NCBI GenBank assembly: GCA_031414595.1
Contig: JANNVX010000008.1
Span: 1 to 50,132, forward strand
From: Deinococcales bacterium
Lineage (GTDB): Bacteria > Deinococcota > Deinococci > Deinococcales > JAAFIG01
Length of the DNA stretch: 50,132 bases
Reading direction: 5' to 3'
In this document: positions 1 to 3,454 of the stretch, piece by piece
How positions within the stretch are numbered: the first letter of the stretch is position 1
Layout of the letters: each line of letters starts with the position of its first letter
Made by a program: the position numbers and the translations under genes
Notes under the pieces: model-generated
Databases searched by the model: none
Told to the model about the DNA's origin: nothing
What the model saw: only the letters and a program-made list of their open reading frames with translations

Positions 1-105
1 GTTTATGCCACTAAACGAAAAGTCGCAGATGACTTCAAGGATTCGATGCGTATTGTGTTTGATAAGGTCATGCCGCAATGGAATTATGTGGCTAAACCGA
101 CTTGA
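1..105 (+). CDS. C-terminal fragment of an ISAzo13-family (Rhodopirellula-type DDE) transposase, truncated by the window edge
   Basis: Frame 1 reads VYATKRKVADDFKDSMRIVFDKVMPQWNYVAKPT*. This resembles the Y-x-T-x-x-K-V...WNY C-terminus typical of ISAzo13 transposases. Confidence 0.75.
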   Translation, partial: VYATKRKVADDFKDSMRIVFDKVMPQWNYVAKPT

Positions 106-142
106 GGTGTAAATCGGGAAGTTATTTACGGACAAATCCTAA
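1..142 (+). mobile_element. Right end of a probable ISAzo13-family insertion sequence
   Basis: The transposase stop is followed by a short tail (..gggaagttatttacggacaaatcctaa). The exact terminal inverted repeat cannot be confirmed because the left end lies outside the window. Confidence 0.55.
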
Positions 143-200
143 CTGTGCCAAACAGCAAAACCCCAATGCCCAAACCGTAGTCGCCCATATCGCGTTCCAA

Positions 201-423
201 CCCTCACCCAACTCGCTTAGGCTCGTTACCCTCTCCCGCCAAGAAGCGCGGGAGAGGGTTGTTCGGTTTGTTTTGTTGGTAAAATTGAAGGCAAAAAATC
301 AAAAAATTAGTTCAAACAGGTTTTTTGAGGCAGACAGGAGTCAAAGTCCCGAATACCAAACCCTCCCCCAGCGAAGCGTTTTTTGGGGGAGGGTGGCGAG
401 CCTAGGCGAGACGGGAGAGGGGG
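201..423. repeat. Inverted pair of CCCTC(T/C)CC-type REP-like palindromic elements (201-259 and 360-423)
   Basis: Copy 1 stem is accctctcccgc(228-239)/gcgggagagggt(248-259). Copy 2 stem is accctccccca(360-370)/tgggggagggt(384-394). Both share ctcgc(t/c)taggctcg in opposite orientations. Confidence 0.75.
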
Positions 424-513
424 TGACTGACCGTGATTTTTTTCGTACTGAAAAGGTTTTGTCCTTAAACTGATGCGAATGGGCAAGCCCAATTTACACC
501 CTTAAAGGTTAAG

Positions 514-1344
514 TCACATTTTAAGGCAAAATTGCATAGCCCCAATCTGAGTTTGGAAATCTAAGCTCATGCGTTTAGCGTGTCTTTCAGGAAACCCTTC
601 ACCAATAAGCGCAGCAAAGACCAAATTAGCGTTTTCATCAGTAGCCTCTATACCCTCTTGAGCAGCTTCAAACACAAATTCTAACCAACGCTTTTCGTCT
701 AACGAGTGCAAATTGCCACTACTTTTGTTCATGCTGTGATACTTGAACTTCCTATACGTTGACTCACTTACACGATCATGTAAATGCACTCGAGTTGGCT
801 GCTGTTCAATTCGCACACTCTTTGGCAAATAATCACGTACTGTATTAACAAAATCAGTCTCGAGAAGATTTTCTTCAGTAGGTGTCATTGAAGGACTACC
901 AATAACTGGGACAATTCTTACAGCCTCTGCAACATCTTCATAAAATGAAATAGCCAAAAGCGGTTTTTCTAAAGATTGATGTTCAAAATAGATACCATTG
1001 AAGGGGATAGGCTCTTTAGTCCCGTATCGCTTCCAATGACCGAGATTTGAAGGTAAAGCATCAAAAACCACTCGAGCTTGTCCAATTGCCACAATAAATT
1101 TGGTATTCAAATAGCTGGGAACATAGCCCTCAGGTAGAACTTGACCTAAATCAAAATATTCATCTGAATTGCTTGCTGACAACCTAACCATAGCTGCTTG
1201 CATGGTGGTGTAGTTCCGATACCCCAAACTTTCAGCTAGAAGTTCAATAGCTGCATTGTGATTCATTTTTTGACCACGTTTCTCGAAGGCATTGCGTAAC
1301 AGCTTTGCTTGTTTCTTGAATTGCAATAGTTTTTCCTCAGTCAT
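514..1344 (-). CDS. Hypothetical protein with an N-terminal 'glyoxalase superfamily protein' (PF20066-like) helical module and an unrelated C-terminal domain
   Basis: The N-terminus KKQAKLLRNAF...MNHNAAIELLAESLGYRNYTTM matches the KxQAKxLR...HxxALExxAxxxGyxxWntl pattern. There is an AAGGAG SD 7 nt upstream. Confidence 0.7.
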   Translation of the reverse strand: MTEEKLLQFKKQAKLLRNAFEKRGQKMNHNAAIELLAESLGYRNYTTMQAAMVRLSASNSDEYFDLGQVLPEGYVPSYLNTKFIVAIGQARVVFDALPSNLGHWKRYGTKEPIPFNGIYFEHQSLEKPLLAISFYEDVAEAVRIVPVIGSPSMTPTEENLLETDFVNTVRDYLPKSVRIEQQPTRVHLHDRVSESTYRKFKYHSMNKSSGNLHSLDEKRWLEFVFEAAQEGIEATDENANLVFAALIGEGFPERHAKRMSLDFQTQIGAMQFCLKM

Positions 1345-1490
1345 AAAAGACTCCTTTCAAATTAGCATTGTGATTTTGAGGTTCCGCGTTGCTCGTTCAA
1401 TGCCATAATGAAAAAAGGCTTTAACCGATAAATTGTGAAATCGCTATTTGCCATACCCATATGGGCGCGGAAGACAGGTGGCGATCACCT
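1345..1490 (-). ncRNA. Putative structured cis-regulatory 5' leader RNA (RBS-sequestering hairpin plus pseudoknot)
   Basis: Pairings read by eye on the minus strand: AGGUG/CACCU (1490-1476); AAAGCCUUUUUUCA(1422-1409)/UGAAAGGAGUCUUU(1359-1346); GGCAUUG(1404-1398)/CAAUGCU(1370-1364); loop CGCGGAA(1388-1382) complementary to UUCCGCG(1472-1466). Confidence 0.55.
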
Positions 1491-1497
1491 AAGCGGT

Positions 1498-1526
1498 ACG
1501 TTAGCACAGCAACGTCAATTTTCCAA
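1498..1526 (-). promoter_or_regulatory. Sigma-70-type promoter for the 514-1344 gene
   Basis: The minus strand reads TTGGAA-N17-TAACGT with an extended TG. The predicted TSS (~1490) coincides with the first hairpin of the leader. Confidence 0.5.
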
Positions 1527-1632
1527 ATGAGTTGCTGTTTGAACCATCTTTTCTGCTCGAGTACACAGCCTTTACTCAAGGCTTTATGACAAGGCTTCCA
1601 AATATGCTGCATAAACGCTTAAAATACAGAAC

Positions 1633-2595
1633 ATGGATCGCCCCTTAATGGTCTTCTCCGGTCAATCGAACCCCGTGCTTGCCAATGAAATCTGCGAGCA
1701 TATCGGCATTCCATTGGGGCGTTCCATGACAAGACGCTTCAGCAACGAAAATATCGAGGTGCAATTTAAGGAATCCTTACGTGAAGCCGATGTTTTTATT
1801 GTCCAGTCCTTGTGTGGCAATGGCGAATACAATGTTTCGGATTCGATTATCGAACTGCTGTTAATGGTTTCTGCTGCCAAAAGCGCCAGTGCCAACCGCG
1901 TCACCGCCGTGATTCCTTATTTTTCCTATGCCCGTTCCGACAAAAAAGACCACCCTCGTATCCCCATCGCGGCTCGAGTCATGGCGGACATGTTTCAGGT
2001 GGCGGGAGCAGACCGCGCCCTGATGATGACCCTGCACAGCCCGCAAGTCCACGGTTTTTTTAGTATTCCCGTAGACCACTTAAGTGCCGAAGTGGTGATT
2101 GGCAACCATTTTATGACCACCATTGCTTCTTTAGAAGATGCCGTGGTGCTTGCCCCAGACGCAGGTGATATTAAACGCGCCTCGAGTTTAGCCCAGCGCC
2201 TTGGTTGTGGTATTGCTTTTATAGATAAACACCGTGTTTCGGATACCAGAGTCGAAGCCCGGGGTTTAATCGGCGAAGTCAAAAATAAAATTGTGCTGAT
2301 TGTGGATGATGAAATTTCCACGGCGGGCAGCATTGTCGAAGCCGTTACTGTGATTAAAGAAGCCGGCGCTCGAGAAGTCCATGTGGCAGCCTCGCACGGT
2401 GTTTATGTTGGACCGGCGGTAGAACGCATCCGTGACCTTGATATTGTCGAATGTGTATCAACCAACACCTGTTATGTCTCGCCAGAAAAACTTGCCATGA
2501 CCCCTAAATTAAAGGTTCTATCGGTTGGCTCGGTCTTTGCCGAAGCAATCCAACGGATTCACACGGGCGAGAGCGTCAGTACGATGTTTATTTAG
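1633..2595 (+). CDS. prs: Ribose-phosphate pyrophosphokinase
   Basis: Motifs [27 protein letters not shown] and the PRPP loop [11 protein letters not shown]. Confidence 0.97.
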
Positions 2596-2634
2596 CTTTT
2601 AGCGACTAGCTGCTAGTTATTAGCTGGTCGCTAG
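2593..2634. repeat. 7-nt periodic TAGCNNN array forming a hairpin after prs (terminator-like)
   Basis: tagcttt tagcgac tagctgc tagttat tagctgg tcgctag; stem tagcgactagct/agctggtcgcta. Confidence 0.55.
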
Positions 2635-2692
2635 AGTCTCCAAAAGGTCTAAAATTTCTAAAAATTTTCGTCAAATGCGTGAATGGAAAAAC

Positions 2693-2771
2693 AAGGCGAA
2701 CACGGGGGTTCGCCCCTACCCCACGCATTTTTTGTACCATAATTGTAGGGACAGACCCCTGTGTCTGTCCT
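2693..2771. repeat. Inverted pair of GTAG-family REP elements
   Basis: aaggcgaacacgggggttcgcccctac (2693-2719) and gtagggacagacccctgtgtctgtcct (2745-2771). The second copy is identical to 16410-16436. Confidence 0.85.
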
Positions 2772-2806
2772 GTAACTAACAATAAAATGGCTTTCTTTCG
2801 GAAGCT

Positions 2807-3454
2807 CTAGCTGGTCGCTGTGTTTGTGTCTTCAAGTAAGTTCAGTAAATCATCCCAAGTGGTCTCGAGGGTCTTGGCTAAAGAAGTGAGGGCAGCTTGC
2901 AGTTGCCAGTTTTTTCTGTCTCCCACCAGATTACTAATACTGCGAAGCTCCAAACACGGCACACCAAAACGCAGGGCGGCTTGGGCAACCCCAGCCCCTT
3001 CCATCGCTTCGGCTCGAGCCGAAAATTGCCTAACAATCCCTTTGGCTCGAGTTGCACTGGTGGTGACGGTTTCTAAGGTGGCAATCACTCCAAATTCCAG
3101 CTTAGCAATTTCAGCATAGGCTAAGGCTCTATTCCAAACAGGTAAAACCTGAAAAATATCTGGGGCAATTGGAAAACCGAGTGCCTCGACTCGAGAACCT
3201 TGCTGTACCCCAAGCCCAGCGTAAACCAAGGCACTCGAGACCACACAATCGGTTAATGCCAAACCAGAATTTGGGTATGCGCCAGCAATACCAACCGATA
3301 AAACCAAATCGGCTCGTCGCTCGAGCAGTGCCGCTTGGGTACTCAGGGCTGCATTGACTGCCCCGATTCCAGAAACAACAATTCTCGAGTCACGCAACAC
3401 GGGTAAGCGCTGCGCCTCGAGCGGCGTGGCAACAACAATCAAAACATTTGGCAT
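2807..3454 (-). CDS. mqnB: Futalosine hydrolase (menaquinone futalosine pathway)
   Basis: PNP/MTAN fold motifs: LIVVATPLEA, SGIGAVNAA, GIAGAY, EAMEGAGVA, ELRSISNLVGDR. Start set at the ATG 6 nt after TAACCT. Confidence 0.85.
   Translation of the reverse strand: MPNVLIVVATPLEAQRLPVLRDSRIVVSGIGAVNAALSTQAALLERRADLVLSVGIAGAYPNSGLALTDCVVSSALVYAGLGVQQGSRVEALGFPIAPDIFQVLPVWNRALAYAEIAKLEFGVIATLETVTTSATRAKGIVRQFSARAEAMEGAGVAQAALRFGVPCLELRSISNLVGDRKNWQLQAALTSLAKTLETTWDDLLNLLEDTNTATS

Follow-up and report, generated by a model that had tools for sequence, protein, structure and literature searches.

Pseudoknots that lie by the ribosome-binding site (RBS) and are controlled by the encoded protein are found in the leaders of phage T4 gene 32 and Escherichia coli rpsO, which encodes S15. 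The SAM-II, preQ1-II, fluoride and guanidine-III riboswitches combine a translational platform and a covarying long-range pseudoknot with a coherent regulon. Here we describe a leader RNA identified ahead of a 276-aa gene in a 50,132-nt stretch of a Deinococcales genome (assembly GCA_031414595.1, contig JANNVX010000008.1), which is referred to as the window. The gene occupies positions 1344-514 of the minus strand, with its ATG at 1344, and is divergent from prs (1633-2595). Comparative sequence analysis indicated that its predicted 5' untranslated region (5' UTR; window 1490-1345, minus strand) is one member of a family of structured leaders. By the same comparison, the leader is a real, conserved, covarying and pseudoknotted RNA in which the RBS is predicted to be sequestered, and it represents an uncatalogued, widespread family of RNAs that is linked to one protein module, the N-terminal part of PF20066.

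The gene 32 and rpsO leaders belong to single genes and respond to one fixed protein, whereas the operator in the present family would belong to a domain common to many unrelated proteins. In the four riboswitch classes the pseudoknot holds the Shine-Dalgarno (SD) sequence, while in this family a long hairpin apart from the pseudoknot has the SD at its base. Their regulons also differ from the present one, which shares only a 50-aa module, and cmscan gave no match to any of the four classes.

The mechanism proposed below resembles that of Aca2 and Aca1, which bind conserved 5' UTR hairpins of their own acr-aca operons and repress translation (PMC13551039). These are likewise genes of mobile elements in which a small helical regulator is encoded on the same transcript, but the Aca proteins are separate helix-turn-helix (HTH) proteins, the RNA consists of one or two simple hairpins, and binding was demonstrated. 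In the present family, the putative regulator is a module fused to cargo, the RNA is a two-domain pseudoknot of ~140 nt, and binding is only proposed. No sequence or fold relation of the module to Aca proteins was found by Foldseek or by a PDB profile search.

Architecture and covariation of the leader RNA

The family set comprised 39 leaders located before genes or operons encoding the PF20066 N-terminal module, which were aligned by covariance model. An alignment of 22 leaders (A5) was obtained with MAFFT from sequence alone, without structure. The controls were pairing partners slid along the alignment, shuffled sequences and, for the -10 box, shifted windows. The upstream regions of the PF20066 loci matched one another at fixed positions. 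In A5, 75.8% of the cells paired in the named helices compared with 33-43% when partners were slid, and the covariation score of 0.345 (0.06-0.13 slid) was reached by 0 of 500 shuffles. RNAalifold on A5 predicted the proposed long-range pseudoknot helix (PK) as the sole helix. With all 39 leaders, 80.8% of the cells paired (31-43% slid) and the covariation score was 0.433 (0.05-0.11 slid). A MAFFT realignment of the trimmed leaders (A6) was poorer than A5 and was set aside.

The RNA is predicted to begin just 3' of the -10 box and may be divided into two domains. In the 5' domain, helix P1 closes helix Pa, the junction holds one PK strand together with hairpin P2, and a conserved GGYRAA motif comes next. 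The 3' domain consists of a variable linker carrying an anti-SD followed by the long hairpin P3, at the base of which the SD is predicted to pair with this anti-SD. AAYGC and a further 6-7 nt form the P3 apical loop, which pairs with the junction strand to give the pseudoknot.

PK lay outside the model, and 87.3% of its cells paired, with 6 of its 7 pairs varying on both sides among the 39 leaders. The six core PK pairs were all standard in 32 of 37 rows, and 14 distinct fully paired PK sequences were observed. P1 paired in 79.6% of its cells with both-side changes in 7 of 7 pairs, and Pa in 93.1%. P2 was missing in some members and paired in 62.1% of its cells, although both-side changes occurred in 5 of 5 pairs. 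Few unpaired positions were conserved in at least 90% of the leaders (CC, AA and part of AAYGC); the GG and AA of GGYRAA were also conserved at this level in the 39 leaders. As the loop lengths of P3 vary, this hairpin has no single column register and was analyzed for each sequence separately. In 36 of 38 leaders the PK 3' strand fell within the apical loop, which was enclosed by 24 pairs on average versus 10.2 in shuffles, and at least four of the five core SD nucleotides were predicted to be paired in 32 of 38 members. In 26 of 39 leaders there was a TANNNT box that ended 4-13 nt ahead of the conserved GG; shifted windows gave such a box in 0-2 of 39, and shuffles led to an expectation of 3.7. 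G-U pairs were common, for example 16 at one Pa pair. The frequent G-U pairs, the pairing of the SD and the -10 box at a fixed distance point to an RNA of the sense strand.

All of the sequence features listed for the window leader by the initial annotation were present on the minus strand (Table 1). The loop CGCGGAA is perfectly complementary to the upstream UUCCGCG, and the minimum free energy (MFE) fold gave the same long hairpin pairing the SD. Taken alone, the window leader is unremarkable: its fold has a z-score of -1.60, 11 of 200 shuffles fold equally well, and by our estimate ~0.7 complements of 7 nt are expected by chance in ~150 nt. Only the comparison lends significance to these features, and conserved structure upstream of homologues, which the initial annotation had made decisive for its proposal, was indeed found. 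Concerning the 5' structure proposed there, the UGUC/GGCA stem (Pa) held up, whereas the AGGUG/CACCU hairpin (P0) was rejected as a conserved element, with 63.9% of its cells paired and little covariation. The loop of this hairpin is the 5' strand of the covarying long-range P1.

Table 1. Positions in the window of the leader elements, the coding regions and the inserted segment
Feature	Position	Strand	Basis or remark
-35-like hexamer TTGGAA	1526-1521	minus	read from sequence; 17 nt from the -10-like box
-10-like hexamer TAACGT (TANNNT)	1503-1498	minus	sequence and family comparison
Leader RNA motif	1342..1502	minus	covariance models; predicted 5' UTR (~1490-1345) plus start codon
AGGUG/CACCU hairpin	1490-1476	minus	read from sequence; weak family support
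P1 5' strand AUCGC	1485-1481	minus	pairs with 1444-1440
Pa 5' strand UGUC	1476-1473	minus	pairs with GGCA 1452-1449
PK 5' strand UUCCGCG	1472-1466	minus	7/7 pairs with 1388-1382
P2 hairpin CCCAUAUGGG	1465-1456	minus	sequence and fold
GGYRAA motif, here GGCAAA	1452-1447	minus	GGCA part is the Pa 3' strand
P1 3' strand GCGAU	1444-1440	minus	immediately 3' of GGCAAA
P3 long hairpin	1422-1346	minus	MFE fold; base pairs the SD
PK 3' strand CGCGGAA	1388-1382	minus	in the P3 apical loop, after the conserved AAYGC
SD AAGGAG	1356-1351	minus	6 nt before ATG; 5/5 core nucleotides paired in the fold
N-terminal three-helix module, residues 1-57	1174..1344	minus	PF20066 match, AlphaFold2
C-terminal domain, residues ~72-276	517..1131	minus	uncharacterised family
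Low-GC segment with promoter, leader and gene	485..1590	.	strain-specific, absent from relatives; limits of flanking similarity

Association of the RNA with the PF20066 module

The N-terminal ~50-65 residues of the window protein match the first part of PF20066 (Glyoxalase_8; 'glyoxalase superfamily protein' at NCBI). Residues 5-71 aligned to profile positions 7-69 of 143 with an E-value of 6.3e-11 and 42.9 bits, above the gathering cut-off of 23.7, in agreement with the resemblance noted from the sequence by the initial annotation. The glyoxalase-like remainder of the family (profile 70-143) is absent from the window protein and an unrelated domain is found instead. AlphaFold2 predicted three helices (residues 3-22, 29-39 and 45-57/58) and a disordered linker (residues 58-67), with a predicted local distance difference test score (pLDDT) of 87.1 over the entire protein; the module modelled by itself reached 90.8. 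The first helix displays a conserved basic stripe (alignment A8). Over the phylum, 29 PF20066 matches were detected in 24 of 364 genomes, 22 of these among the 111 genomes of a sister genus, g7. The matches covered profile positions ~6-57 at or near the N-terminus of open frames of 71-639 aa, and a second Pfam family was absent in 27 of 27 module proteins checked. Thus, the module is portable and fused to many unrelated C-terminal parts, as had been supposed. Full-length PF20066 members occur on plasmids. Searches of NCBIfam and PADLOC gave no family.

Two covariance models were used to search for the RNA. Model R1 contains 15 pairs without PK and includes the window leader among its seeds; model R2 excludes it and was built on 36 leaders, all from other genomes. 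R1 scored the window leader, as one of its seeds, at 59.1 bits. In the leave-one-out search, the best R2 match in the window was 1501-1342, with 45.4 bits and E 7.4e-9, and the second best reached 11.5 bits. With R1, one copy of the RNA was found in the genome of the window and matches were obtained in 24 of the 111 g7 genomes. Eight non-seed matches in g7 scored at least 27 bits, of which six preceded open reading frames (ORFs) with a module-like start and two were decayed; the PF20066 search at E 0.001 had missed these six ORFs. Five weak R1 matches of 25.7-26.5 bits (L065-L069) were judged to be false, being located in coding or repeat DNA and having no PK.

Among the 29 PF20066-positive loci of the phylum, 24 have the leader RNA, and 22 of those were seeds. 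At the non-seed loci L020 and L026, the RNA precedes a longer N-terminal extension. A tblastn search with the module yielded 20 plasmid records annotated 'glyoxalase superfamily protein', while the window's own module gave no tblastn match to plasmids. All six proteobacterial plasmid loci examined, picked by tblastn with the module, carry the RNA at 23.5-47.9 bits. In four of them, from Pseudomonas, Variovorax, Methylobacterium and Microbulbifer, the RNA extends as far as the ATG of the module gene. In searches of whole plasmids, six of seven matches preceded module genes or operons and the seventh was followed by an IS66 insertion. A contig labelled as phage also carries the RNA (33.9 bits), and one IMG/VR locus gave a weak match. 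No leader RNA was detected at the genes examined that encode stand-alone homologues of the C-terminal domain. The portability expected by the initial annotation was thus borne out, as RNA and module travel together across phyla (g7, plasmids and the phage-labelled contig), irrespective of which C-terminal domain follows.

The leader was not assigned to any family by cmscan against Rfam 15. Window positions 1-3000 at E up to 10, and 14 g7 loci and three plasmid loci at E up to 1, gave only unrelated weak matches elsewhere. A literature search did not find 'PF20066' or 'Glyoxalase_8' as terms. The words 'glyoxalase' and 'Deinococc' were not found in the main texts of PMC5737381, PMC8632094 and PMC11109978, whose supplements list the motifs and might name this one otherwise. 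Leader families of this complexity (four to five helices plus a pseudoknot) that occur in at least two phyla as well as in plasmids and phage-like DNA, and that lie outside Rfam, are now rare finds. The signature is also unusual in that the leader is tied to a small module heading many unrelated proteins and not to a pathway.

Genus g7 appears to be Deinococcus-like, judging from its DdrB- and IrrE-like genes. Its cassettes cluster, with three on one contig (G020:C28) and two on another (G099:C20), and these contigs are rich in hypothetical genes and also carry transposases. Neighbouring genes encode an HTH and IrrE-like peptidase pair and a NACHT/NB-ARC ATPase (L096, L097, L098), and one cassette is directly followed by a DdrB-like gene (E 3e-59; L098 13434-14933). 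At L029 (~1608-1660), the module gene of G094 is split by a frameshift ~50 nt past the start codon and the RNA motif before it is intact. In the Pararhizobium plasmid locus (L099 1042-2438), the position that a multidrug and toxic compound extrusion (MATE) gene has in Agrobacterium is taken by two overlapping frames of 399 and 326 aa, probably a frameshifted pseudogene, and the leader ahead of them is kept at 39.5 bits.

Proposed function and alternative explanations

We propose that the leader gates translation and that the module protein is the effector, a reading that we regard as quite possible, though short of probable. P3 would keep translation off by default, and the 5' domain together with the pseudoknot would act as a sensor setting how firmly P3 is locked. 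The part of effector may be played by the encoded protein through its own basic three-helix module. The module is favoured in this role because it is the only shared protein feature, because it is basic and because few unpaired RNA positions are conserved. There is also a precedent in Aca2 and Aca1, which bind 5' UTR motifs of their own operons (PMC13551039). Promoter, leader and module would then constitute a portable negative-feedback unit, to which mobile elements attach varied cargo domains. Such a unit would provide mobile elements with a modular device for feedback, and synthetic control with a part that is ready to use.

A broader proposal, which we put forward more tentatively, is that the ~50-aa PF20066 module is an RNA-binding tag for the pseudoknotted leader of its own mRNA, and that plasmids, phages and islands of several phyla graft this promoter-leader-tag governor onto unrelated cargo. 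If so, a burst of expression would be followed by self-limitation, and the pair would represent an RNA-protein co-module at the level of the domain instead of an operator at the level of the gene. The association offers a first functional handle on the N-terminal module of 'glyoxalase superfamily protein' and on a large set of hypothetical genes of plasmids and islands.

Several results weigh against the proposed explanation. Because RNA and module are adjacent at the loci, their co-occurrence could be plain linkage in one mobile unit. The leaders are related to one another, and since kin are not independent the shuffle controls overstate the significance. No leader RNA was found at five of the 29 PF20066 loci (L027, L034, L035, L037 and L039), and in three genes the module is preceded by an extension of ~35-100 aa. 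In the Agrobacterium and Pararhizobium plasmids, the RNA lies before a MATE efflux gene or its remnant and the module gene comes second. Judged by the E. coli consensus, the window promoter is a weak one, and a strict sigma-70 consensus scan did not list it. For the module alone, Foldseek identified no relative and no match from the PDB profile search had an E-value under 0.17. For the whole protein, Foldseek gave nothing at E up to 0.001, and the best Z of 6.3 from VIA-align wide was within its stated noise.

The operons with MATE in first position (two of the six plasmid loci) also suit a riboswitch on a detoxification operon. In this case, the 5' domain and pseudoknot would bind either a small molecule or an ion and thereby control the opening of the SD hairpin, the module proteins would handle the compound, and the family would be a new riboswitch class. 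RNA of this size and complexity fits an aptamer with an expression platform, and members are located before canonical full-length PF20066 (glyoxalase-fold) genes as well as before an operon in which a PF20066 gene comes after a MATE efflux gene. We nevertheless consider a riboswitch unlikely, as the regulated proteins share only the 50-aa module and their unrelated C-terminal parts have no Pfam family, which is unusual for a riboswitch regulon. The small number of unpaired positions conserved at 90% or more and the lack of a matching Rfam class also speak against it. A leader that is fixed, or is controlled by some other factor, seems somewhat less unlikely, though we would not expect it. It would serve as a portable expression module providing mRNA stability by a 5'-terminal helix and low translation, and could be opened by RNase III cleaving P3, by a helicase, by temperature or by some host factor, with the module uninvolved in control. 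The start of P1 within a few nucleotides of the predicted 5' end, the long duplex of P3 and the location of the genes on plasmids, in islands rich in insertion sequences (IS) and on a phage-like contig are in accordance with this. However, it leaves unexplained why the RNA is tied to one module across phyla and absent at the stand-alone C-domain genes, and why compensating changes maintain a pseudoknot that reaches to a separate 5' domain.

The module as effector is preferred much more clearly over two further explanations. Several copies may occur per contig or plasmid, beside transposases and an integrase, and a constant 5' part is followed by differing C-terminal parts. Such a pattern could arise if promoter, leader and module-coding region had no RNA function and were kept alike by recent recombination or cassette swapping, or if the folds acted as single-stranded DNA at a recombination or replication site. 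This is very improbable, because the leaders are highly diverged (window versus G130, described below: 24 nt, E 0.79) and yet double changes preserve their helices, an outcome that neither drift nor recombination produces; the indications of a sense-strand RNA noted above also disagree with it. Equally far from likely is a self-cleaving ribozyme or a separate small RNA, such as an RNA antitoxin, ahead of the gene. A compact pseudoknotted fold in a mobile-element setting would be in keeping with either, but no Rfam ribozyme or small RNA family matches, no terminator lies between RNA and gene, and the motif continues into the SD and ATG in every member. The leader motif is also not a tandem repeat.

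The window protein and its locus

Besides the module, the window protein defines a second uncharacterised protein domain, its C-terminal domain, which AlphaFold2 predicted to be alpha/beta plus helical and for which no known fold matched clearly. Among 1.84 billion representatives, a HMMER scan with an E limit of 0.001 identified 19 proteins, namely the query (P0001) and 18 others, and P0002 has the same two-domain build as the window protein. Seventeen of the 19 were checked, and 16 of these are stand-alone C-terminal-domain proteins of ~195-270 aa without a Pfam family. The family shares the motif FSxxANKSTGxSHPxDxxRW and the invariant residues W104, P146, N159, S204, N206, G210, H213, D216, W220, F223 and L246. 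Its profile matched 4 of the 364 phylum genomes. DUF1889, a lead from the protein Atlas (score 0.80), was unsupported by Pfam and was rejected.

Close homologues of the window protein were not found, as a word-index search returned only the protein itself and a scan of genome contigs returned none. A scan of metagenomes detected a single, distant homologue of the stand-alone type (L013). Genome G130 (L015) has the only full-length homologue from a genome, which is located beside an IS21-type transposase (L015 3-824, 1498-2346). Its leader aligned to the window leader in blocks that were equally far from the ATG; the best blastn match between the two leaders was 24 nt at E 0.79, which is not significant alone. 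A stand-alone homologue in G267 (L016) sits between IS3- and IS6-like transposases. Inside the window leader there is an upstream ORF of 30 codons, from ATG 1454 to TAA 1362 on the minus strand, which ends just before the SD. Conservation of this ORF was not seen in the G+C-rich relatives, and the equivalent in G130 is open and in frame with the gene.

The composition and distribution of the segment at 485-1590 indicate that the window gene is foreign to its genome. The GC content of the segment is 0.39-0.42 compared with ~0.50 nearby, and the gene was found in 0 of 60 relatives compared, seven of them of the same genus. Of the sequencing runs listed for this DNA none was of RNA, and four DNA runs that contain it in full may come from the source sample. 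Similarity to the same genus on the prs side begins only at 1591, 42 nt ahead of prs. The IS end and repeats noted beside the locus by the initial annotation were both confirmed. Positions 1-142 are an IS end. Many contigs of this genome terminate in identical or near-identical copies of it, which accounts for the contig breaking off at this point. Positions 145-484 are one copy of a ~340-bp repeat family with dozens of copies at 70-84% identity in the genome and genus. This repeat holds G+C-rich inverted repeats, such as a terminator-like one at 228-259.

Upstream of prs, only ~45 nt (1591-1635) are kept in the genus. They contain TTCCAA, an 18-nt spacer and TAAAAT ending 7 nt before the ATG, and the prs mRNA therefore looks leaderless. 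The statement that most genes of the window are leaderless thus holds for prs, the sole gene checked. Just past prs, at 2630-2700, lies a second short repeat family of ~70 bp with many copies across the genus.

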